Shown here one piece after another: positions 1,651 through 23,694 of a stretch of DNA of 28,100 bases; positions within the stretch are counted from its first letter, which is position 1, and every line of letters starts with the position of its first letter. Below the pieces are notes generated by a model, which searched no databases, was not told where the DNA came from, and worked only from the letters and a program-made list of their open reading frames with translations. The stretch is from Candidatus Bathyarchaeia archaeon (GTDB lineage Archaea; Thermoproteota; Bathyarchaeia; Bathyarchaeales; Bathycorpusculaceae), in NCBI GenBank assembly GCA_049969855.1, contig JBMFOB010000016.1, forward strand, positions 1 through 28,100. Direction: 5' to 3'. The position numbers and the translations under genes were made by a program.

Positions 1651-2949
1651 CTACTTTTCCGCTTTCTTCAGCAAACCGATAAGCATAGGCAATAGTTTAG
1701 TGCCGCGTTCCAATATACCTAGACTTCCACTTTTGCATTCCTTTTCAGAGAACTTGGAAACGTTATCGCCTCTGATCTTATCTCCCGATATTAGAAGTGG
1801 AACTGGATCGTCGCTGTGAGCTTTAAGTTTGCAAGGTGTCGAATGATCTGCAGTAACGCAGATTATATGGTCTTCCAATTTTATTTTTTGCAAAAGTTTT
1901 CCGAAAAAGTGCTTATCGATTATAGATATGAGCTGAGCCTTAAGTTCGAATTTTCCGTCATGTCCAGGCTCGTCTGGACCTTTTAAGTGTATGTAAAAAC
2001 AATCATAAGCGGTGAGGCAATCAATTAACTTCTTCACTCGGAGTTTACAGTCACTTTCAAGGTCATGTGAAGGTGGTGGAAGAATTACGGTATCCATACC
2101 TGCTAATTTAGAGATTCCTCGTTCAACAGGCATATCGGTTAAGGAAACAAAACGCACTCCATAGTGTCTGTTAATGTTGAAGAATTTTGGCAGTTTATGC
2201 CCAGCATCTCTTGTAAGTATAATGTTTGCCTTAAGTTTACCTTCCCTTTCGCGTTTTCTGTTAATCTCGTGTGCATCTAGGATTTCACGGCTTTTTTTGA
2301 CAAATTCGTTCACAAGATCCGCAGAAATTTTTGCTCCTTCACTACTGTCCATGGGCTCGCATTTTTGGGGGAACATTCTAATTTTGGCTTCTGCTATTCC
2401 AAGCTCTTTTATTTTGGCGTAGCCTGGATCGGTATTTGTTATTCTGCTGGAGAGGGGTTTCTCATGGCTTCTTATGACCAAAACTCCTCTATGGCCAACG
2501 GTATTCTTAAACTCAAAATCTGCAGAGTGAGATTCAAGTTTCACATTTTCATTAATAGCTTTACATAACTCAGTAGCCTCTTCGGTGGTTAAGTTTCTTC
2601 CCACGCGTCTATCAATAAGCTCGCCTTTTTCGCCTAAGGTTGCAAAGTTACATCTTAAGGCAAGATCGCCATCTTTTACTTCAATGCCAGCGCCAACGGC
2701 TTCAAGGATTCCTCTGCCAGTGCCGTATTTGAAAGGGTCATATCCCAAAATTGAAATTACAGCTACGTCGCTTTCTGGAGCGATGCCTCTCTTAACAGTA
2801 TACATTAACCCTGTTTTTCCATGTGCAGCTAGAAAGTCCATATTTGGCGTGTCTGCAGCCTCAAGTGGGGTCTTATTGTCTAATTCTTCAATGGGTAAGT
2901 CGCCCATTCCATCAATAACAACGTAAATCAGTTTTAAAATTTTATTCAC
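1651..2949 (-). CDS. apgM: 2,3-bisphosphoglycerate-independent phosphoglycerate mutase, archaeal type
   Basis: DGMGD...TPLEAA.TPNMD, PESD (catalytic Ser), KGPDEPGHDG and TADHSTP...HS.DPVP alkaline-phosphatase-superfamily metal motifs. Confidence 0.92.
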   Translation of the reverse strand: MNKILKLIYVVIDGMGDLPIEELDNKTPLEAADTPNMDFLAAHGKTGLMYTVKRGIAPESDVAVISILGYDPFKYGTGRGILEAVGAGIEVKDGDLALRCNFATLGEKGELIDRRVGRNLTTEEATELCKAINENVKLESHSADFEFKNTVGHRGVLVIRSHEKPLSSRITNTDPGYAKIKELGIAEAKIRMFPQKCEPMDSSEGAKISADLVNEFVKKSREILDAHEINRKREREGKLKANIILTRDAGHKLPKFFNINRHYGVRFVSLTDMPVERGISKLAGMDTVILPPPSHDLESDCKLRVKKLIDCLTAYDCFYIHLKGPDEPGHDGKFELKAQLISIIDKHFFGKLLQKIKLEDHIICVTADHSTPCKLKAHSDDPVPLLISGDKIRGDNVSKFSEKECKSGSLGILERGTKLLPMLIGLLKKAEK

Positions 2950-2982
2950 CTCTTTATAGCTTGAAGCCCCAACATATAAAGG

Positions 2983-3426
2983 CTATTTCACTATTAGTAC
3001 GGGACAATGTGCCTCATCTGCAACTCTATCGCTAACGCTTCCTAAGAAGAACTCTTTCACTTTCCCTAATCCTCTATGTCCCATGACTATTAGGTCAAAG
3101 TTTCCTTCTTTAGCTGTTTCAACTATTTTATCTGACGGCCGACCTTCCTTAAGAACAGTTGAAATTTTCAAGTTGGGTTTAAGTTCTTCAGATTTTTTAA
3201 GAGCTTTGGATAATATTTGTTCATGAATCCCTTTCAATTCATTAGTAAACTCAGCCAAAAGGGCTGGATAAGCAAAAGGTTCACCTAAATAGCCAACCGT
3301 TGGTACTTGAAAAACATTTACTAATGTAATCGTTGCAGAATATTTCTCAGCCATATCGAGTGCGAAGTCCAGTGCTTTATCTGCATGTTCAGAACCGTCA
3401 ATCGCTACCAAAATTTTTGTAATCAA
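2983..3426 (-). CDS. Universal stress protein (UspA family)
   Basis: KILVAIDGSEHA N-terminus and DLIVMGHRG...LGSVSDRV...CPVLIVK C-terminus. Confidence 0.95.
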   Translation of the reverse strand: MITKILVAIDGSEHADKALDFALDMAEKYSATITLVNVFQVPTVGYLGEPFAYPALLAEFTNELKGIHEQILSKALKKSEELKPNLKISTVLKEGRPSDKIVETAKEGNFDLIVMGHRGLGKVKEFFLGSVSDRVADEAHCPVLIVK

Positions 3427-3500: not shown

Positions 3501-3722
3501 TTATTGCGATTCTTTACGCTTCTTCAAAAATCTTTCAACGGCTTTCCTGTTCGGTAAGGCTCTGGCTCCAACCCTTGTTATTTTTAAATTAGCCGTAGCA
3601 TTAGCGAACTCAACGGAATCTTCCAAATTTTTACCCTCCAATTGAGCCGTGATAAAACCAGCTGAGAATGCATCCCCAGCTCCAGTCGTGTCAGCAACCT
3701 TCACCGAATAAGCGCGCGCATA
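3501..3722 (-). pseudogene. C-terminal fragment of a PfkB/ribokinase-family sugar kinase
   Basis: The DTTGAGDAFSAGF PfkB signature and ANATANLKIT..GA..LP tail are present, but only ~70 aa of a ~300 aa family. The upstream DNA is the AT-rich spacer before the divergent GT gene. Confidence 0.8.
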
Positions 3723-3795
3723 TAATTGAGAGTAAAGGGATAAATATGGTTTAATACAAACTTGATTGAAGTATAAATTAAAGTGAGCGGGTAAA

Positions 3796-5034
3796 ATGAG
3801 AATCGGGTTTTTCGTTTGGGAATACCCACCAAAGCTTGTAGGCGGGTTAGGGACCTATGCAGAATACATTACCCATGAATTCGTCGAGTTAGGCCACGAT
3901 GTTACAGTCTTCACACTCAATCCTGGAGACCTAAATACAAGAGAAATACTAAAGGGAGTTGAAGTTCATCGACCTCTTATCGCAGATGCAAGCAACGTTT
4001 TTCCAATGTTTGTTACCGAGGATTTAAAGAAATGGGGAACAAACATCCGATTTTTCAACGACATCTTCATTTACAATGTTCTCAGCGCAACCAAATTCAT
4101 TAATGGACTAATCAGAAAACAAGGGTATAAATTTGACATTGTCTGTGTACATGACTGGTTGAGCAGCATAGCAGGCTTAATAATCAAAAATGAAACCAAA
4201 ATCCCAGTTGTTTTCCATGTCCACAGCACAGAATGGGGACGAAGCGGAGGACAAGGCTCAGAAGTTGTTTCACATCTCGAGTCAGCGACTGCACAGACGG
4301 CGGATAGGATAATAACAGTTAGCCACGCAATGAAAGACGATTTGACGCGCCATGGTTGGCCTCAACAAAAAATAAGCGTGGTATGGAACGGTGTAGATCC
4401 AATACGTTATGACCCCAAAAACTGTGAACCCGAAGATGTAAAGAAGATCAGAGAAAAGTATGACATTCCAGATGATTGGAAAATGCTTCTTTTCCTTGGA
4501 AGATTAACTTGGGTGAAAGGCGTTAAAAACCTAATACAAGCCATGCCCACAGTTTTGAGAGACTATCCGCAAACAAAACTCGTGATTTTAGGCAAAGGCG
4601 AAGAAGAAAAAGACATAGAAGAAACAGCATCCAGACTTGGAATAAAAGACAAGATCATATACCGTTTCGAGTTTGTCCCAGAAGACGAACGAATCTTGCA
4701 TTACGCCGCAGCAGACCTATGCATTTTCCCCTCAACATACGAACCATTCGGCATCGTCAGCCTAGAAGCAATGGCAATGGCAAAACCAGTTGTCGTCGGC
4801 GCCCACGGCGTAGTAGGCTTCCGAGAACAAGTGGTCTCCTCAGGCCCAGACCAAAACGGCATCCACATCAACGGCGAAGACCCAACTGACATAGCATGGG
4901 GAATAAAAGAAACCCTCAAAGACCCACAAAGAGCCAAAACATGGGGAGAAAACGGAAGAAAAAGAATTTTACAATACTTCACGTGGGAAAAAACTGCCGA
5001 ACAAACACTAGAAATCTACAAAACTCTCATTTAG
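3796..5034 (+). CDS. Glycosyltransferase family 4 (GT-B), glycogen synthase-like
   Basis: WEYPP..VGGLG, HDW, H.TE.GR, GRL...KG and YEPFGIVSLEAMA motifs. Confidence 0.92.
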   Translation: MRIGFFVWEYPPKLVGGLGTYAEYITHEFVELGHDVTVFTLNPGDLNTREILKGVEVHRPLIADASNVFPMFVTEDLKKWGTNIRFFNDIFIYNVLSATKFINGLIRKQGYKFDIVCVHDWLSSIAGLIIKNETKIPVVFHVHSTEWGRSGGQGSEVVSHLESATAQTADRIITVSHAMKDDLTRHGWPQQKISVVWNGVDPIRYDPKNCEPEDVKKIREKYDIPDDWKMLLFLGRLTWVKGVKNLIQAMPTVLRDYPQTKLVILGKGEEEKDIEETASRLGIKDKIIYRFEFVPEDERILHYAAADLCIFPSTYEPFGIVSLEAMAMAKPVVVGAHGVVGFREQVVSSGPDQNGIHINGEDPTDIAWGIKETLKDPQRAKTWGENGRKRILQYFTWEKTAEQTLEIYKTLI

Positions 5035-5384
5035 AGAATTTTAATTCCGTTAATTATTCGCCTTTTTCTGTTAGTAACCTTTATTCGCTGCGCTCTAAGG
5101 CTCAAGTTTTCGCCTCCAGCAGGAGCCAAGGCTAAAACTCGCATTAGGCTTTTTCCTCCGCCATTTTGGACTGCTGGGTCGCCAATGCCTTTCAGAAAGC
5201 ATAGGTTGCTGGCGGGTTGCCAGTGCCCCTCAAAATAAAGGCTTGGCTCGCCATCTTCGGGAAAAGGGATAGCTTCATCAATATTTTCTTCGCCCCAAAC
5301 ACGCCCACACTTAACGCATACAACTTCGCTTTCAGCCATCATTAGTGAGCCGCCACATTCGAGACACATTCCAGCGCTAAACAT
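5031..5384 (-). CDS. TFIIB/TFB-type zinc-ribbon protein lacking cyclin folds (possible truncated relic); start may be the ATG at 5369
   Basis: CLECGG...EVVCVKCGRVWGEENID resembles the TFB N-terminal CxxC-CxxC ribbon. Confidence 0.6.
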   Translation of the reverse strand: MFSAGMCLECGGSLMMAESEVVCVKCGRVWGEENIDEAIPFPEDGEPSLYFEGHWQPASNLCFLKGIGDPAVQNGGGKSLMRVLALAPAGGENLSLRAQRIKVTNRKRRIINGIKIL

Positions 5385-16109: not shown

Positions 16110-16721
16110 ATGGAAGAGTTTAATGTGGTTTTGGCTGGTGTTGGTGGGCAGGGGATACTTTTGGCAGCGGAGATTTTGGGAACAGCAGCTGTTAAAGAGG
16201 GTTTGAATGTTCGGGTAAGCGAAATTCACGGGATGGCTCAACGGGGCGGAGCTGTGGTTTCCACTGTGAGATTTGGAGAGAAAGTTTTTGCACCAACAGT
16301 TTTGGAGGGGCAAGCAGATGTGCTTTTGGGTTTTGAGCCTTTTGAAACTTTGCGGAACTTGAAGTTTGCCTCAGAAAAGACGCTTGTAATAATGAGTTTG
16401 GAGAAGATTCCTCCAACAGAGTTAACGGCGAAAATGATGCTGTATCCGTCGTTGAAGGAAGTTGAAGAGAAAATTCGTTATTTCACAGAAAACTTGATGA
16501 TTGTGGACGCTCCAGGGTTAGCCAAGAAGGCTGGAAGCACTCTTACGCAGAATGTGGTTTTGCTTGGCGCTTTAGCGGCAACTGGAAAGGTTCCAGTTAA
16601 AACTGAAAGCCTATTGGATGCTCTTAGGGAGCTTATTCCAGCAAAATATTTAGATGTGAACATTAAAGCCTTTAACCTTGGATATGAATATGTGAAAAGG
16701 GAGATTAGGAAGGAACGGTAG
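16110..16721 (+). CDS. iorB: Indolepyruvate:ferredoxin oxidoreductase beta subunit
   Basis: GVGGQG, SEIHGMAQRGGAV, NVVLLGAL and N.KAF..G; directly follows iorA. Confidence 0.95.
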   Translation: MEEFNVVLAGVGGQGILLAAEILGTAAVKEGLNVRVSEIHGMAQRGGAVVSTVRFGEKVFAPTVLEGQADVLLGFEPFETLRNLKFASEKTLVIMSLEKIPPTELTAKMMLYPSLKEVEEKIRYFTENLMIVDAPGLAKKAGSTLTQNVVLLGALAATGKVPVKTESLLDALRELIPAKYLDVNIKAFNLGYEYVKREIRKER

Positions 16722-16731
16722 AATTTTCTTG

Positions 16732-17454
16732 TTAGTCCTTATGAATGTTCTTAAATATTCTAATTAAGTCATCGAAAATAGCTTCATAACGCTTTACTTT
16801 GTTACTTTCCCACTCCTTCTTGAACTCCTCTCGCAGAATATACACTCCGTCTAATTCATATTCTGCGATAATTCTGTTTCTGTCCATTCCGTCATATCGC
16901 TTTTTCTCACTTATGAAAAAGTCTTCATCATTATCCGTAGTAGCTAAGAAAACATGAACATTTTTGGTTACATCTGCCGAGAGAAGTTTCAATTTCCAAT
17001 AATATGCTTGGGCAATTCTTTCTCTCAAACTTGTCTTACATGATATTATTGCTAAAATCTCAGATTTCCAAGGCTCTACAAAGTTGTAATCAACTATAGC
17101 CATATCCGTATCAGGTAGCAATAAATATTTTCCATATTTTACAGCAAGTTTTCTTTGAATAATCTCGTTACTTTCGATTTCACTCTGTGTAAAAACATCC
17201 AAGCTTTTAAACTCTGGATTTTGTGATTTAAGCCTTGTAAGATATCCTTTTACTATGGAGTAAAATAATTTTTTCTCAAATATGTCGCCAATAAACTTAT
17301 GCCAAGATTGTTCTGAAAATTGTTGCACATATAACTCTTTTAATTTTTTAATTTCGCTCCAAGCTTTTTCTGGATTTATATTTCCTTTCTGAAGCCCCAG
17401 AATAAGAGTCTCTACTTTCTGTTTTGCATTGACCATGTTATTTGCCTCATTCAC
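16732..17454 (-). CDS. Type II restriction endonuclease, BsaWI-like (PD-(D/E)xK)
   Basis: LLPDTD...ISCKTSLRERIAQ.YYWKLKL...TTDND motif pattern; start overlaps the MTase stop; AT-rich. Confidence 0.78.
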   Translation of the reverse strand: MNEANNMVNAKQKVETLILGLQKGNINPEKAWSEIKKLKELYVQQFSEQSWHKFIGDIFEKKLFYSIVKGYLTRLKSQNPEFKSLDVFTQSEIESNEIIQRKLAVKYGKYLLLPDTDMAIVDYNFVEPWKSEILAIISCKTSLRERIAQAYYWKLKLLSADVTKNVHVFLATTDNDEDFFISEKKRYDGMDRNRIIAEYELDGVYILREEFKKEWESNKVKRYEAIFDDLIRIFKNIHKD

Positions 17455-18706
17455 GAGGATATTGTGTCCATTTAATTTCTCGAGGTTTAGGTTTTTCAGG
17501 TTTACTGCTTGGTTTTCGCATGATAATTAAGTATTTGAAACCGCGTAAAAAGAAATTGAATTTTCTAGCACGGTTAAACCATGTAGATGTATGCGAGGAT
17601 TGACCTCTTCTGGCAATACAGATAATATCTACAGGTTCAAAATATTTACATAAACGCTCGTATACTTTCAGCCCTACAGGAGTAAATTTTCCTTGAACCC
17701 ATTGGTCACCAATGAGCCATCCCAATATTTTTCCCTCTTTCAAAATTCTATAGGATTCTTTCATTACTTTTTCAAGCTCATCGTAAAATTGTTCGGTTTC
17801 GCTAGAAATTTTGCCTATATCATCCGGATGTTCGTTATATCTAACATTATCTCCATATGGAGAATCTATGAAAATCATATCTACGGAATTGTCTTCTAAC
17901 GGTATTTTTCTTGCATCGTTTTGAATAATATCTGGACGGGTAGGTGCGATATCGTAGCAAATACACCGTCTTTTCTCTTCTTTGCAAACATCAAGAGTTG
18001 TGCCGCTTCCCGCCATTGGGTCTACGACCAAATCTCCAGGGTTCGTGTATCTCCATACTAAGTTATAAATTATCAATGCTGGAGTAACTCCAGGGTATTT
18101 ATTGTCTCCTTTAGGGGTTAACCCATAACTTTGCCTTGGAAAGTCCCAGAATGTTGTAGCTTCAATGAGAGGAATCTCTTCCTCAATATCTACCTCTTTG
18201 ATTCTTTTTTTAAGTTTCTCTTTTTCATTACAGATTAAATGGACTGTTTCATTGCTAATCAATTTTGATGAGTTGTTTAATGTAGGGTGAGGTATAAAAA
18301 GGTCTAAGAACTCCAATAATTTCTTACCGAATAAAGGCGTATTTCTTTTTATTCTAAAAGTATTCAATATTCGTTTTGCATCATTTAATGCGATTTTTTC
18401 CCCAAGAATTTCCACTTTTACTTGATAGGGACACTTTCCATTCCATGCGTCAGGCTGAATATTAAATCCTCCGTCAGATGTGGCCCTAAAAACTCCGTAT
18501 AACGTATTAGTATTCATATTGTTTAAGAATAAAAGGTCGCCCTTTCTTATTCTAATAACAATTGGTCCATAGAATTTTTCAGTTCCGAATAGCATCCTCT
18601 TAAAACATTCATCTTCAGTTTTCTTAGTACAAGCGAAAACGAATCCACGAATTAACTGCTCCTCACATGCTTCTTTCATAGTATTTACCATTAGATATTT
18701 TTCCAT
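17447..18706 (-). CDS. Amino (N4C/N6A) DNA methyltransferase with N-terminal DCD-like domain
   Basis: Motif I DPMAGSGTT followed by motif IV-like FIDSPY. N-terminal GFVFAC...EC..RMLFG...LLFL.N...LYGVF.A.S.GG.NI.P.AW...P.QV. ATG 18706 has a GAGGGAG RBS; the ORF could start at 18766. Confidence 0.85.
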   Translation of the reverse strand: MEKYLMVNTMKEACEEQLIRGFVFACTKKTEDECFKRMLFGTEKFYGPIVIRIRKGDLLFLNNMNTNTLYGVFRATSDGGFNIQPDAWNGKCPYQVKVEILGEKIALNDAKRILNTFRIKRNTPLFGKKLLEFLDLFIPHPTLNNSSKLISNETVHLICNEKEKLKKRIKEVDIEEEIPLIEATTFWDFPRQSYGLTPKGDNKYPGVTPALIIYNLVWRYTNPGDLVVDPMAGSGTTLDVCKEEKRRCICYDIAPTRPDIIQNDARKIPLEDNSVDMIFIDSPYGDNVRYNEHPDDIGKISSETEQFYDELEKVMKESYRILKEGKILGWLIGDQWVQGKFTPVGLKVYERLCKYFEPVDIICIARRGQSSHTSTWFNRARKFNFFLRGFKYLIIMRKPSSKPEKPKPREIKWTQYPRE

Positions 18707-18786
18707 CTTAATCGCTCCCTCTTCATTTTTCACTTCGAACCATTCCTTAAATCTGTTTCTTTTCATCAGCCAATGCTGTCAATTTT

Positions 18787-19852: not shown

Positions 19853-19978
19853 CTCTTTTATGGTTTAATTGAGAACTTAGGGTTACTTACTGATAAAACT
19901 TGAGCATAAAATTGAATGGTTTCCTTTAGAGATTTTGGATAGACCCCCTAGGTTTTATTAGCCCCTTCCCCTCTAGGT

Positions 19979-20019
19979 TTTATCCATGCATTAGGGTTTT
20001 TAGTTGCTCTATTTCTTTG
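19979..20019. repeat. Direct repeat copy A (41 bp), a degenerate duplicate of the Type IIG gene 3' end
   Basis: tttatccAtgcattagggTttttagttgCtctatttctttg matches 20615-20655 at 38/41 nt. The minus strand reads KEIEQLKTLMHG* versus KEIEQLKALMQG*. Confidence 0.9.
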
Positions 20020-20055
20020 CTAATGTTTATTAGTTGTTTGGTTGTTTGTTGTTTT

Positions 20056-20498
20056 ATGGCTGTTGTTGGTGTTGATTTTAGTGGGAAGTTTTCGGATGCT
20101 CCTCCTTGTTTTTGTGTAGCTGTTAGAGATGAGCGTTTTTATTGTGTTTTGATGACTGGAAAAGCGAAGCGTGTTGTTAGAGTGCATAGGGTTCCGAAGG
20201 CTTTGGCTACTGCTGCTTTGATTTATTATACGGTTTTGCCTTTGGTTCAGGCTGGTGATGTTGTTTTGATTGATGCGGAGTATGATGTGAGTATTTGAGG
20301 AAAGTGCGTAGGTATTTGGAGAAGACTCTAAATGTGTCTTCTATAGCGGTTGGGCATATTTCTGATAGGGCTATCGAAAGGGCAGATAGGTTGTCGAAGG
20401 TTTTTAGGAGAAGGAGGTATTGTGATGAGAAAGACCCTGATATTTTAGAGTTTGTGAAAATGATTCATCCCGCTCGCGGAGCCCGTTTCACTCCGTGA
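20056..20498 (+). pseudogene. Small RNase H-fold (DUF3800-like) protein split by a -1 frameshift
   Basis: ORFs 20056-20298 and 20295-20498 join into ~147 aa if one T is added at agtatt(t)tgagg (~20294). Acidic motifs VGVDFSG / VLIDAE / IERADRLS are spaced like an RNase H-fold D-D-D triad. Confidence 0.55.
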
Positions 20499-20572
20499 TT
20501 GGTCTGGAATTTCCCAGTGGTGGTACTTTTCCTTAGGCTCTGATGAGCCTTCACGGCACGCCGCGAGGGGTT
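20469..20572 (-). ncRNA. Candidate structured non-coding RNA (three-way junction)
   Basis: Nested pairings: 20473-79/20561-67 (extended by 20469-71/20568-70), 20493-98/20551-56, hairpin 20535-40/20545-50 and hairpin 20504-08/20513-17. The last closes with G-U only on the minus strand. GC-rich island in AT-rich DNA, with a TATA box ~28 nt upstream on the minus strand. Confidence 0.65.
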
Positions 20573-20597
20573 ATCAGTTTAAATTAGTTTGTTTGGT

Positions 20598-20605
20598 CTT
20601 ATAAG
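20598..20605 (-). promoter_or_regulatory. Putative archaeal TATA box for the ncRNA candidate
   Basis: CTTATAAG lies 25-30 nt upstream (minus strand) of the first stem, just past the Type IIG stop codon. Confidence 0.45.
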
Positions 20606-20614
20606 GATATTGTC

Positions 20615-20655
20615 TTTATCCTTGCATTAGGGCTTTTAGTTGTTCTATTTCTTTG
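20615..20655. repeat. Direct repeat copy B (41 bp), the last codons and stop of the Type IIG gene
   Basis: 38/41 identical to 19979-20019, offset 636 bp. Confidence 0.9.
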
Positions 20656-23555
20656 GTTAATGCTGGGTATAGGTAGTCTAAGAGTTGGTTGGTTTCTGTT
20701 TCGTTGAAGCCTAAAATTTTGAGTATAGCCTTATCTATTTCAACTCTTGCCCAAAACCTACCCCGCAACTGCTCAAGAATGCTCGGAAACTTCTGCGTTT
20801 TAAACTTCTCGAATAAGTCAAGTAAAGCGTATTTTTCTTGCTGGGTCAATGTCTTTGGATTAAGCATCATTGAGTTTCTAATTTGATATTCGTGCAATTT
20901 TATCCAAGCCCCTCGCGTTTCCGTTCTATATATGAGCAATTGGAGAAGATTTAGAGTGCTGTTGAACCAGAGGGTGAAGATTTTGGCATCTTTATCGTTA
21001 AAGCCTTTAATGCTCCACATGTCTACTCCAAAAATGGGTGTTGCAGAGAAAAACGCCAGAAATTTGGTTCCTTTTGCGGATAAATCAAAGCGTCTGGAAA
21101 TAATCAAATTTGCCTTTTTAAGAAAAACTATCTTTTTCCAACGAGAAATGTCGGTTAATGCCTTTTTGGCTTGCTCTTCGTTAGGAAAGAGTTGATTAGC
21201 ATCTGAGAATTTATCGACAAGAATGTAATCAAGGTCATCAGAAATATCTAAAATATCACATCCGGCTGGTCTTCTGAAACCACGTTCCAGTACAAAAATG
21301 GGAATTGTGAGTGATTTTTGAAGGAATCTATGTTCAGAAATTACTGTATCTGGTTTTTCTTCTTTTACCACCCATACATCGTATTTTTTGATAGCTCGGT
21401 TTTTCTTTACTATAAAAGTGGAATTGAATGGTGGGATGTAAACGTCTTCGTACGCCTCAATTCTGTTTTCGTTAAAGTAAGAATTGCAATTTACCAGTTT
21501 GTTTTTAGCTTTTTGAGTAAATTGGTTAAGTAACTTTATTAAATGGAGGTCGGAAACCGAAATTAAAGGGAATAGATTATCCACAGACTCTTTCAATTCT
21601 CCTTGATTAATTACTGATAAAAGCATACCTTCGTCTTCATACGTATCACCAACAGCCATTTCCAACTTCTTATTTTGGATAATGTCAGCAATCCTTCGAG
21701 CGTCCTCTGTATTCTTAGGTAACTTTTTTAAAACAACTATACCGCATTTTAGAGAATTACTAATTTTACCACTTTCTTTATGACTCTTTAATTTCTTAGC
21801 AACTAATAAAATTTCCCTGAATTGAGCAGCTTCAGAGAAAGCTGCTCTTTCCCATGTTGTGATAATATACTCTATATGATAATTATCTACCCATAACTTT
21901 CTTGCCCCCTTCATCGATACTATCCGTAAGACTGTCGCAGGTAAGACAAAAGCTATTCTACCATCTGTTTTAGTGAACTTATCCGCCAAAAGCACGAAGA
22001 ATATGTGAAGCCCAACTCGACCATAAATTAAATTTTCGTATTCCTTGAGGCGGCTTTTCAGTTGTTCCTTATATATTTCTGGAAGCCTTTCAGCCCTTGT
22101 GAATGGTGGGTTCATTATTACTAGGTCTGCTTGCTCAAGTGGAATCTGTTCCCCACCAATTCCCTCCAGCGTTACTGCACCTTTCTCAACATAAGCCTCT
22201 TCCTTAAGCGGTTTCCCCTCCATAAACAACTCCAACGTCGGACGCTTATAAGCAGCTTTTAACTCTCTGGAAATAGCTGGAATAGTCTGTCCGGGCTCTA
22301 ATTCGGTTGAATCCCATACTGCTATGCGTACTTTTTCTGTTTCGTGCCCAGCAGCCAAAGCTTGAAGGGATAAATGCACAACAGCCATATGCGCAGCAAA
22401 AGGCATAATATCAACACCAGTCAAATCCTGCTCCAAAAACCGTTTATGGTCTTCAAGCGTAAAACCACCCTTCTCCCTCTGCAACAATTCCCTCTTACGC
22501 CTATAAGCTGCAACCAGAAGCGTCCCACTGCCACAAGCCAAATCCATAACCTTCGCATCAGCCCTATCAATGGCAAGCTGCGCCAAAATCTCAGCAGCCT
22601 CATTATTCGTGTAAAAAGCAGCAACAGCCTTCCTAACCTCAAAAGGAATCAACTCATGAAAAACCTTACCCAACAAATCATGCCTAATCTTCTCAGGAGC
22701 CAAAGCCTTAACAACCATAACAACCTTCCGCACAGTCTCAACAGCAGAATCAGGCAAACGAGAAGCCACATCAAAACCAAAAACGCTGCTAAAATCCCTA
22801 CGCAAAACAGGCTCAAAATAAGCCCTCAAATCACTTGGACGCTTAATCCTGTCCTCATCAATAACAGCAAAACTCGCATCAACCCGCGTCAAAACATGAT
22901 AAAACAACAACTGATTAACCAACAAATAAGTAACAGCCCTACGCATCTCCTCAAGCGGATACCGCCCCTCCTCATACTGCAAAACATTCTCAAAAACACT
23001 TTTACCACCAAAAATATCCTCCAACTCCCTACCCTGCAACATCCTAACACTAGCAGTAACATAATCAACAGCATCCCGCAAAACACGAATAGCAAAACCA
23101 GTATCAGCCTCAACAACAGGCGCCCTAAGAACATGCCCAGCCATCCAATCAGCAATCTCCGCCAAATTCCCAACAAAACGCTGACTAGGCCTCAAATCCT
23201 TGAAAATAGCCGTAACAACATACTCCGTCTTAGGGTTCAAAGCAATATTCAAAATCACCTCATGAGACCAAGGCCTCCGCAACTCCTCAGGAAACAAAAC
23301 AGCAAAAGCACCCTTAGCTTCAGTAACATACTTCGAATAATCATACAACCGCACCATAGCATCCAAAAGCTTAGGCTCAGCACCCAACTTAGTCTCAACA
23401 ACATACTCAGCCCCATTCTTCAACAACATATCAGGAGCCAAACGCCCAACAGGAGTCGAAACAGAAAACTCCGGAATAACAGTTACGCCTCTCTTACGCA
23501 ACTCCTCCTGCAACAAATCCCGAATCGTCATCTCAGTCGGCTTAGCCACACCCAC
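20616..23555 (-). CDS. Type IIG-like fused restriction endonuclease / N6-adenine methyltransferase with C-terminal specificity region
   Basis: N-terminal PD...ETK (PD-(D/E)xK), then gamma-class MTase motifs AFYT, DLACGSGTLL, GVDI, NPPF and FVLP; 979 aa. Confidence 0.85.
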   Translation of the reverse strand: MGVAKPTEMTIRDLLQEELRKRGVTVIPEFSVSTPVGRLAPDMLLKNGAEYVVETKLGAEPKLLDAMVRLYDYSKYVTEAKGAFAVLFPEELRRPWSHEVILNIALNPKTEYVVTAIFKDLRPSQRFVGNLAEIADWMAGHVLRAPVVEADTGFAIRVLRDAVDYVTASVRMLQGRELEDIFGGKSVFENVLQYEEGRYPLEEMRRAVTYLLVNQLLFYHVLTRVDASFAVIDEDRIKRPSDLRAYFEPVLRRDFSSVFGFDVASRLPDSAVETVRKVVMVVKALAPEKIRHDLLGKVFHELIPFEVRKAVAAFYTNNEAAEILAQLAIDRADAKVMDLACGSGTLLVAAYRRKRELLQREKGGFTLEDHKRFLEQDLTGVDIMPFAAHMAVVHLSLQALAAGHETEKVRIAVWDSTELEPGQTIPAISRELKAAYKRPTLELFMEGKPLKEEAYVEKGAVTLEGIGGEQIPLEQADLVIMNPPFTRAERLPEIYKEQLKSRLKEYENLIYGRVGLHIFFVLLADKFTKTDGRIAFVLPATVLRIVSMKGARKLWVDNYHIEYIITTWERAAFSEAAQFREILLVAKKLKSHKESGKISNSLKCGIVVLKKLPKNTEDARRIADIIQNKKLEMAVGDTYEDEGMLLSVINQGELKESVDNLFPLISVSDLHLIKLLNQFTQKAKNKLVNCNSYFNENRIEAYEDVYIPPFNSTFIVKKNRAIKKYDVWVVKEEKPDTVISEHRFLQKSLTIPIFVLERGFRRPAGCDILDISDDLDYILVDKFSDANQLFPNEEQAKKALTDISRWKKIVFLKKANLIISRRFDLSAKGTKFLAFFSATPIFGVDMWSIKGFNDKDAKIFTLWFNSTLNLLQLLIYRTETRGAWIKLHEYQIRNSMMLNPKTLTQQEKYALLDLFEKFKTQKFPSILEQLRGRFWARVEIDKAILKILGFNETETNQLLDYLYPALTKEIEQLKALMQG

Positions 23556-23694
23556 AAACCATCATCCAAAAATAAAATCCCACCCACAAGATAATATGCT
23601 TTATCATAACACCATCAACATATCAGACTCCAAATAGACGGGCTATGTGCTATTGCATATGCGAAAACAGAACATAAAAAGAAAATAAGGAAAA

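Follow-up and report, generated by a model that had tools for sequence, protein, structure and literature searches.

The DNA stretch analysed here, hereafter the window, comprises 28,100 nucleotides (nt) of contig JBMFOB010000016.1 from a Candidatus Bathyarchaeia archaeon (assembly GCA_049969855.1). It is archaeal, with about 40% G+C, carries genes for EF-1alpha, an ERCC4 nuclease and restriction-modification enzymes, and a neighbouring protein has a named relative from Candidatus Bathyarchaeia. Next to a large type IIG restriction-modification gene lies a small unit of two genes in tail-to-tail orientation: a plus-strand gene for a protein of 147 amino acids (aa) and a minus-strand gene for a structured non-coding RNA, the subject of this study (Table 1). 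The RNA gene is genuine. It is GC-rich, about 110 nt long with a core of ~102 nt (20469-20570), and forms with the protein gene an interlocked, mobile pair that is inherited and lost as a unit. An earlier sequence-only reading of the window had proposed a minus-strand structured RNA at 20469-20575, and the sequence, coordinates and strand of this feature are as given there. What it missed is that the RNA overlaps the 3' end of the convergent protein gene, and that the pair is a mobile cassette.

Table 1. Elements of the RNA, its partner gene and the surrounding island (positions in the window; alignment columns refer to the 53-RNA alignment).
Feature	Positions	Strand	Remarks
TATA box CTTATAAG	20598-20605	minus	read in the sequence; same spacing in about 50 homologous loci
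Putative start region and short unpaired 5' leader (..CUGAUAA)	20571-20577	minus	placed from the TATA spacing
P1, 5' strand CCCCUCGCGGCGUGCCGU	20553-20570	minus	pairs with 20469-20486; columns 14-31 with 107-124
Junction GA, part of GUGA	20551-20552	minus	faces GA across the putative tandem G.A/A.G next to P2
P2 hairpin AGGCUC AUCA GAGCCU	20535-20550	minus	columns 34-38 with 49-53
Junction dinucleotide opposite GUGA	20533-20534	minus	GA in 52/53 RNAs, AA in the window
P3 arm	20506-20532	minus	GGAA/UUCC, internal loop AAGUA/(G)AAA, 2-base-pair tip helix, variable loop
Junction strand J3-1 AGACCAAUCACGGAGUGAA	20487-20505	minus	unpaired in the supported fold; holds UCA, antisense of the protein stop codon
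P1, 3' strand	20469-20486	minus	antisense to the codons for ..HPARGARF of the convergent gene
3' tail	20457-20468	minus	U4 run (20457-20460), possible terminator; T4 at +8 past P1
Convergent gene, 147-aa protein with predicted RNase H-like fold	20056-20498	plus	split in the window into open reading frames 20056-20298 and 20295-20498
Left direct repeat	19979-20027	plus	copy of the 3' end of the type IIG restriction-modification gene
Right direct repeat	20615-20664	plus	true 3' end (..EQLKALMQG*) of the restriction-modification gene
Type IIG restriction-modification/methyltransferase gene, 979 aa	20616-23555	minus	upstream neighbour on the RNA strand
3.7-kb island	about 19910-23670		cassette and restriction-modification gene; missing in three same-genus genomes

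The case for the RNA is carried by covariation. Homologous loci were retrieved via the ~147-aa protein, giving 59 metagenome loci and 2 genome records, and 53 distinct RNAs were aligned (alignment A4), with duplicates (L085, L052, L055, L077), an end-cut copy (L045) and a partial copy (L065) omitted. Over the whole structure, 97.5% of 1376 alignment cells hold standard pairs, and 14 of the 26 pairs show compensatory changes, in 77 cells. None of 500 shuffled controls reaches the observed percentage of pairing, number of compensatory pairs, number of compensatory cells or covariation score, and the number of further pair types is reached by a single one (1/500). When the partners are slid by 1-3 columns, pairing falls to 31-54%, and over all slid controls it never exceeds 57%. 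The same architecture is obtained from mutual information, pair counts, a pair-counting test and RNAalifold. The copy in the window taken alone also folds better than shuffled sequence: the minus strand reaches -42.7 kcal/mol (z = -3.70), a value that none of 200 dinucleotide shuffles equals, whereas the plus strand is weaker at -40.7 kcal/mol (z = -2.04), equalled by 5 of 200 shuffles.

According to the alignment, the RNA core is predicted to be a three-way junction in which a long closing stem, P1, meets two arms, P2 and P3, while a strand of 19-21 nt leads back to P1. P1 is paired in 98.9% of its cells with seven compensatory pairs, is predicted identically by RNAalifold, and is interrupted by a C.U mismatch and by two bulges, one of C and one of G/A. 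In P2, four of five pairs are compensatory and the loop varies in length and sequence. P3 starts with a helix of 20529-20532 with 20506-20509 (columns 57-60 with 83-86) that is paired in 99.1% of cells, with compensatory changes in three of its four pairs; its pair 60-83 occurs as A-U (41 RNAs), G-C (9), C-G (1) and U-G (1). This helix is followed by the internal loop with AAGUA at 20524-20528, and by two tip pairs, C67-G79 and C68-G78, which are C-G or U-G in 51/53 RNAs each (C-G proper in 50 and 46, respectively). The AAGUA/(G)AAA loop may resemble the AGUA/GAA module of the sarcin-ricin loop. At the junction, G32 and A33 are invariant in all 53 RNAs, and base 20534 (column 55) is A in the window but G in all other homologues. 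The only variable parts of the RNA are the two short hairpin loops.

This architecture agrees with the sequence-only reading in half of the proposed fold. Its closing stem (20555-20570 with 20469-20484) and its first hairpin (20535-20550) are both borne out by covariation over the 53 homologues. A helix CCGUGA:UCACGG (columns 28-33 with 95-100), which it placed inside the closing stem, is paired in 89.9% of cells but has no compensatory change in any of its six pairs, and pair 30-98 is broken in 20/53 RNAs; the helix is partly constant because it is coding, being antisense to the stop codon and a Pro codon of the convergent gene. The pairing CCGU:ACGG, mentioned there as an alternative, turns out to be the better-supported helix, with 97.6% of cells paired and pair 29-109 present as C-G in 41 and U-A in 12 RNAs. 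A switch between the two pairings finds no support in the alignment. A second hairpin, CUGGG:UCCAG, is paired in 47% of cells and gives way to the covarying GGAA:UUCC. Consequently, the 17-nt segment 20518-20534, described as an unpaired strand, is not a free linker since the covarying P3 helix makes use of it: half of it is paired, and it comprises the junction GA (AA here), the 5' strand of P3, AAGUA and a tip pair. The suggestion that this segment serves as a guide, to be recognized as a variable linker in a conserved scaffold, fails as well, because GAGGGAAAGUACC is among the best-conserved stretches of the RNA and stays constant from homologue to homologue. Across the 53 RNAs, no hypervariable segment of guide length was found beside the conserved scaffold. 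Exact 9-mers of each RNA that are complementary to the 1-kb flanks on either side are scattered and share neither a position in the RNA nor a target, so that no RNA segment has a consistent 9-nt complementarity to the flanks.

The strand of the RNA can be read from the kind of pairs that are tolerated. In the 25 pairs first tested, there are 149 G-U/U-G cells against 33 A-C/C-A cells, 19 of the latter in one doubtful pair. Because G-U cells far exceed A-C cells, the RNA is assigned to the minus strand, on which 96.0% of the cells of these pairs can form against 87.2% on the plus strand. That the structure instead belongs to a plus-strand 3' untranslated region or terminator hairpin of the protein mRNA, or is a chance palindrome, is a reading we regard as most improbable. 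The plus strand does fold to some degree (z = -2.0) and the protein mRNA probably extends into the region, but on this strand pair 16-122 is mismatched in 40/52, pair 26-111 in 50/53 and pair 19-118 in 22/53 copies, a chance palindrome would not be expected to exceed all 500 shuffles in covariation, and the promoter faces the opposite way.

This promoter, also proposed by the sequence-only reading, is a conserved element. A (C/T)TTATA(A/C/G) box preceded by an A-rich stretch lies ~30 nt upstream of a GAUAACC motif in about 50 homologous loci; in the window, the corresponding CTTATAAG is found about 25-30 nt upstream of GAUAACC (20575-20569). In archaea, ~30 nt is the usual distance between TATA box and transcription start. 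Because the box stands at this canonical distance, we infer an RNA start near 20575, in line with the start proposed earlier. The position of T-runs behind P1 is used for the other end: a T5 run lies 36 nt downstream of P1 in 27/53 homologues, and within 36 nt in 30/53, so that the RNA 3' end is probably located 10-40 nt past the core. The leader motif GAUAACC could in principle pair with GGUUAUC in codons 3-5 of the protein gene, but no convincing covariation among variants was seen by eye and this pairing was dropped.

The RNA family appears to be new and to have no counterpart in Rfam. Rfam 15 yields no family at gathering score over the whole window, and a permissive scan of 20350-20700 gives chance-level matches to unrelated families only (E >= 2). 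The RNA is not a tRNA, as already stated by the sequence-only reading, and ARAGORN finds no tRNA or tmRNA gene in the window. In the titles and abstracts that the literature search covered, no comparable RNA is described for Bathyarchaeia. A hammerhead-like reading of GUGA, helix and GA together with GAAAC was considered and rejected, as the core positions misfit and there is no Rfam match.

Two known RNA architectures share elements with the junction. Read from the alignment, P2 is enclosed by GUGA(A/U)GG and CUGA. The box C/D consensus is RUGAUGA/CUGA, and archaeal small RNAs of this class carry a C/D and a C'/D' pair with guides of 10-12 nt. The flanking of a short hairpin by both motifs is thus reminiscent of a C'/D' pair, yet the RNA described here has one box pair only, lacks guides of 10-12 nt and is twice the size. 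Among the C/D families of Rfam, the only match within 20350-20700 is SNORD33, on the plus strand, with 14.8 bits against a gathering score of 44 (E = 9.2), which is chance level.

The second likeness is to the k-junction, in which, according to PMC10573300 and PMC5061560, tandem G.A/A.G pairs stand beside a helix and a third helix emerges from the non-bulged strand. As in the k-junctions of the thiamine pyrophosphate (TPP) riboswitch and the DUF-3268 RNA, under the definition given in PMC10573300, P3 follows GA directly 3' of P2 in a three-way junction. The tandem sheared G.A would be formed by the invariant G32 and A33 and the opposing GA (52/53 RNAs; AA in the window). The differences concern the loop of the bulged strand, which is 0-2 nt here (depending on pairs 30-108 and 31-107) instead of 3, and the linker from the third to the first helix, which is 19-21 nt instead of 1-2 nt; in addition, there is no sequence match to either of the two Rfam families. 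L7Ae did not fold k-junctions according to PMC10573300, and for this reason L7Ae binding is not to be assumed for the RNA.

The 3' part of the RNA overlaps the last ~13 codons of the protein gene by about 42 nt (20457-20498). That the plus-strand frame is a true gene is seen from its codon-position entropies, which are 0.33, 0.27 and 0.83 over the first 400 nt of 41 distinct intact genes. Over the last 42 nt, where the RNA overlaps, these values are 0.26, 0.25 and 0.27, and synonymous sites are frozen exactly at the overlap. The encoded C-terminal peptide, (M/L)IHPARGA(R/C)F(T/I)P, does vary (G to E, G to R, R to C), and while these changes are radical for the protein, within P1 they amount to G-C to G-U or U-G to U-A. 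The protein tail (residues 137-147) has a predicted local distance difference test score (pLDDT) below 50 in the AlphaFold model and is missing in distant homologues. We conclude that RNA structure, rather than protein function, shapes the 3' end of the gene. Protein identity between subfamilies is only 50-70%, yet the 40-nt overlap is conserved. Two further features of the gene pair did not hold up: an open reading frame (ORF) antisense to the protein gene (48 loci) is spurious, having variable length and low complexity while the entropy marks the plus frame as coding, and an 18-nt inverted repeat between RNA and gene in L086, seen in weaker form in the related L004 but not in the window, was taken as chance.

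The protein is intact at 147 aa in 43 of 53 ORFs from related loci; L028 is intact at 154 aa, and distant homologues measure 144-159 aa. Its gene in the window is split by a 1-nt frameshift near 20289. The structural model (pLDDT 72, predicted template modelling score 0.65) has the order b1-b2-b3-a-a-b4-a-b5-a-a. Foldseek relates it to RNase HII, retroviral integrase cores, RNase HI and phage RuvC (E 2e-4 to 7e-3, template modelling score (TM) about 0.4), and VIA-align to Argonaute PIWI domains, sugar kinases, actin-like ATPases and RNase H2/H3 (Z <= 7.6). With scores as weak as these, the protein is predicted to fall within the RNase H-like fold superfamily but into no specific family. Across distant homologues, D7, D68 and D73 are invariant and D111 nearly so, and the protein is of basic character, having helices rich in Arg/Lys at 35-43 and 104-120.

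By sequence, the family has no match in Pfam, NCBIfam, PADLOC or PHROGs, and nothing was found in the PDB; the same four collections give no match to RuvC, TnpB, IscB or IS110, and one RuvC is among the structural matches, at a weak score. A lead from the ESM Atlas to DUF2209 (PF09974), at 0.85, was rejected because six members of the family (E <= 10) and the genome (E <= 0.01) showed no profile match. A search of 1.8 billion representatives returned 20 matches at E <= 0.001, including one in a Micrarchaeota genome; the protein profile matches 3 of 401 genomes sampled from the class, and the protein was not found in 400 other genomes of the phylum nor in viral contigs. Three giant proteins, P0017 (2614 aa), P0022 (6660 aa) and P0024 (1239 aa), show 6-19 repeated weak matches each within profile residues ~38-99, which may be a repeat or composition effect.

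The RNA accompanies this protein closely. With nhmmer, 54 of the 59 metagenome loci, and L028 as well, prove to carry it immediately behind the protein gene and on the other strand. In the remaining five, the contig ends (L065), there is no room (L089) or the copies are decayed (L088, L090 and L092); a covariance model did not find the RNA in these decayed copies either. Among 151 genomes from the same archaeal order, the covariance model detects the RNA in three, each time with the protein gene or a remnant of it, and a BLAST search of the RNA against 40 related genomes gives one true match, G026, from another family of the same order, the remainder being chance (E > 0.01). The source genome has a single RNA copy. 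In locus L075, two diverged RNA-protein cassettes (176-302 and 2901-3026) share one array at a distance of 2.7 kb and enclose a HepT/nucleotidyltransferase pair.

All genome copies are damaged, while metagenome copies are mostly intact. The window combines the frameshift with the unusual A at 20534, G026 has a frameshift, and G421 has an internal gene deletion and a degenerate RNA. The window copy may be decaying, or its frameshift may be a 1-nt assembly error in the metagenome-assembled genome. A broken gene with an intact RNA occurs in at least nine copies (window, L004, L086, L084/85, L087, L071, L077, L091), whereas an intact gene with an altered RNA is seen in L062 only, where the AAGUA loop is deleted. 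Two deletion derivatives, L091 (1567-1814) and L095 (G421, about 1500-1730), have lost the middle of the gene and keep the ~40 first codons, the C-terminal overlap and the RNA; the latter is intact in L091 and degenerate in G421.

The persistence of the RNA where the gene is broken or internally deleted (L091, window) could suggest that it acts independently of the protein, as a host-directed regulatory or architectural RNA that works with general RNA-binding proteins and merely hitch-hikes in the cassette. Its own promoter and its modules, which look like generic protein-binding RNA motifs, would fit such a role. We nevertheless deem it quite improbable: the RNA is never seen without the protein gene or a remnant, neither in the 151 genomes nor in any of the loci, the conserved 40-nt overlap ties both genes together across subfamilies with 50-70% protein identity, and k-junction RNAs gave no response to L7Ae in the work of PMC10573300.

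The RNA and the protein gene together make up a cassette of ~0.65 kb between direct repeats that encodes no other gene. The 979-aa neighbour on which the repeats are modelled matches Eco57I, N6_Mtase and MmeI_Mtase in Pfam and REase_MTase_IIG in PADLOC. In three genomes of the same genus (G001, G003, G004), the ERCC4 gene directly abuts the EF-1alpha gene and the island is lacking. In most loci of the main clade, the repeat reproduces the 3'-terminal 48-90 nt of a type IIG gene, and several loci hold arrays of 0.7-1-kb units between the same repeats, with genes for ParE, HepT plus nucleotidyltransferase, aspartyl proteases and asparaginase. Such arrays, integron-like in layout, were noted in L037, L053-L055, L059, L067, L068, L075 and L091, e.g., in L055 at 1424, 2381, 3090 and 3888. 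In six divergent loci, no convincing flanking repeats were found. As the divergent subfamilies (L028, L078-L087, L004/L086) keep the gene-RNA pair without detectable repeats, the conserved unit is the pair itself.

Archaeal integron cassettes, according to PMC9668308, likewise form arrays of ~0.7-1 kb with a repeated site and carry toxin-antitoxin and restriction-modification genes. Here, by contrast, the repeats copy the 3' end of a type IIG gene, RYYYAAC/GTTRRRY cores were not seen by eye, and the RNA is not located at a cassette boundary. These observations bear on whether the element acts at the level of DNA, as an attC-type recombination hairpin or a transposon end. An imperfect palindrome of ~100 nt within a mobile cassette, in a domain of life for which cassette arrays and integrons are on record (PMC9668308), makes this worth considering. 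We judge it very improbable, since the cassette ends at the direct repeats, which lie 60-90 nt beyond the element, a TATA box is kept at the spacing of a promoter, the asymmetry of G-U over A-C and the conserved unpaired motifs are typical of RNA, and the cores were not seen by eye at the element ends either.

The pair lies in the company of restriction-modification and toxin-antitoxin genes. Beyond the RNA, the next gene belongs to restriction-modification cluster c2, the type IIG family of the window, in 10 of 61 other loci and in the window. Among 11 other large neighbours are two of Eco57I type, one of AlwI type, a ResIII helicase, one with an HATPase domain, one containing an intein and one without family; the remaining four have no evident role in restriction or defence (Fe-S/FAD oxidoreductase, ketopantoate reductase, HMG-CoA reductase, DUF6786). 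In L080, a neighbouring 486-aa ORF (3581-5038) has an intein splicing domain. The window itself holds a second restriction-modification island (16712-18784), also missing in the three same-genus genomes, where its flanking genes are adjacent; it encodes a BsaWI-like endonuclease (16732-17454) and an N4/N6 methyltransferase with a Dev_Cell_Death domain (17447-18766). Antisense to the type IIG gene, a 406-aa ORF (22374-23594, plus strand) recurs in six loci and matches nothing in Pfam; the region around it has a strongly negative GC skew, and the ORF is probably just a spurious shadow. Finally, a short internal repeat (CCCCTAGGTTTTAT.. / CCCCTCTAGGTTTTATCC) is found at 19925-19990, just inside the left edge of the island and beside the left direct repeat.

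The RNA is probably the RNA partner or regulator of the protein. As a more specific model we tentatively propose, at a little below an even chance, that the RNA restrains a nuclease-like protein, much as an antitoxin does. This proposal is drawn from the convergent complementarity, the separate promoter, the toxin-antitoxin and defence genes in the neighbourhood, and the broken genes with preserved RNAs. ParE, and HepT plus nucleotidyltransferase, are encoded by neighbouring cassettes that lie between these same repeats, and the predicted RNase H-like topology of the protein comes with the invariant D7, D68 and D73. The RNA could bind the protein through its protein-platform-like modules in the style of type III antitoxins. 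Alternatively, it could pair with the mRNA 3' end in the style of type I antitoxins, as its 3' third and tail are perfectly complementary to it, and both modes may possibly operate.

Neither of these systems is matched in full. The pair shares with type I toxin-antitoxin systems a convergent small RNA with its own promoter and perfect complementarity to the 3' end of the partner mRNA, although the likeness here is one of geometry alone, and a place on mobile DNA among other toxin-antitoxin modules. It departs from them in that the partner is predicted to be a basic alpha/beta protein of 147 aa with an RNase H-like fold and the RNA a conserved three-way junction rather than a simple stem-loop. 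Type III systems of the ToxIN kind have antitoxin RNAs made of tandem repeats and ToxN-type endoribonuclease toxins whose fold is not known to be RNase H-like. Common to them and the present pair is a structured RNA that could neutralise a nuclease by direct binding, encoded in tight linkage with it; the RNA described here has no tandem repeats, lies on the opposite strand with a promoter of its own, and its partner is RNase H-like by prediction.

Several points weigh against restraint of the protein by the RNA. The protein is a soluble 147-aa fold, unlike type I toxins, which are small hydrophobic peptides according to PMC6563280, and Tandem Repeats Finder detects no repeats in the RNA, unlike in type III antitoxins. 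Most of the RNA sequence antisense to the mRNA is tied up in P1 and therefore ill-suited to fast antisense pairing. The elaborate conserved junction is more than regulation needs, and a structural or catalytic complex of RNA and protein would account for it just as well. Moreover, the count of broken genes versus broken RNAs is biased, with the gene being four times longer and point damage in the RNA invisible, and the toxin-antitoxin cassettes nearby show the setting, not the function.

The foremost rival, which we hold to be unlikely, is a minimal ribonucleoprotein in which the RNA, as scaffold, activator or guide, is indispensable to the protein; such a nuclease or recombinase would serve in cell defence or in moving the cassette. 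It is attractive because the cassette holds no other mover and the predicted fold is integrase-, RuvC- and PIWI-like: a cassette with direct repeats of 48-90 base pairs sits in an island that relatives lack, so something must move it, and nothing else is encoded there. The RNA and the protein strictly accompany each other and interlock physically, the protein has a basic character and two Arg/Lys-rich helices, its fold matches are nucleic-acid enzymes of the RNase H superfamily (retroviral integrase cores, RuvC, Argonaute PIWI), and the conserved junction and internal-loop modules resemble protein platforms. The alignment offers no support for a guide, as the two short hairpin loops alone vary and 9-nt complementarity to repeats or flanks is inconsistent. 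In addition, divergent subfamilies hold the pair without detectable flanking repeats, the fold matches are weak (Foldseek TM about 0.4, VIA Z <= 7.6) and point to no specific family, and other cassettes of the arrays lack the protein, making a trans-acting recombinase encoded elsewhere equally possible.

The closest precedents for such an enzyme are the OMEGA systems (TnpB/IscB with omega-RNA) and IS110 with its bridge RNA, in which a protein of the RNase H superfamily is combined with a structured RNA of ~100-200 nt at the gene end on a small mobile element. The present pair has the same composition, a protein of predicted RNase H fold with a structured RNA overlapping the gene end on a small mobile element. 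It differs in that its RNA runs antisense to the gene, and neither a variable guide nor loops for target binding were found in it. The protein is smaller by a factor of 2-3 and has no hit among the sequence models of RuvC, TnpB and IS110, and long direct repeats enclose the element. In its strongest form, the idea would join RNA (~110 nt) and protein (147 aa) into an RNA-dependent enzyme of RNase H fold smaller than any other known, with a k-junction-like scaffold activating or directing a nuclease or recombinase for host defence or for movement of the 0.65-kb cassette, and into a new class apart from Cas, TnpB/IscB, IS110 and Argonaute; this stronger claim we consider somewhat less likely still. 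The RNA-protein pair thus resembles type I and type III toxin-antitoxin systems as well as OMEGA-type pairs, but has the defining features of none of them.

In summary, this work adds a well-supported family of structured RNA to Bathyarchaeia, an uncultured and abundant archaeal class, and couples it to a protein family without annotation in Pfam, NCBIfam, PADLOC or PHROGs. Where the two genes overlap, RNA structure clearly dictates which C-terminal peptide the protein carries. With the 3' end of a type IIG gene as their anchor, the arrays point to a mechanism of cassette capture in archaeal defence islands. If the RNA neutralises the protein, as we tentatively favour, the pair would be an archaeal toxin-antitoxin-like system that combines an RNA antitoxin with a toxin of RNase H fold. 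If the pair is an enzyme instead, its small size would be unusual for an RNA-dependent nuclease or recombinase and make it interesting both for evolution and as a tool.

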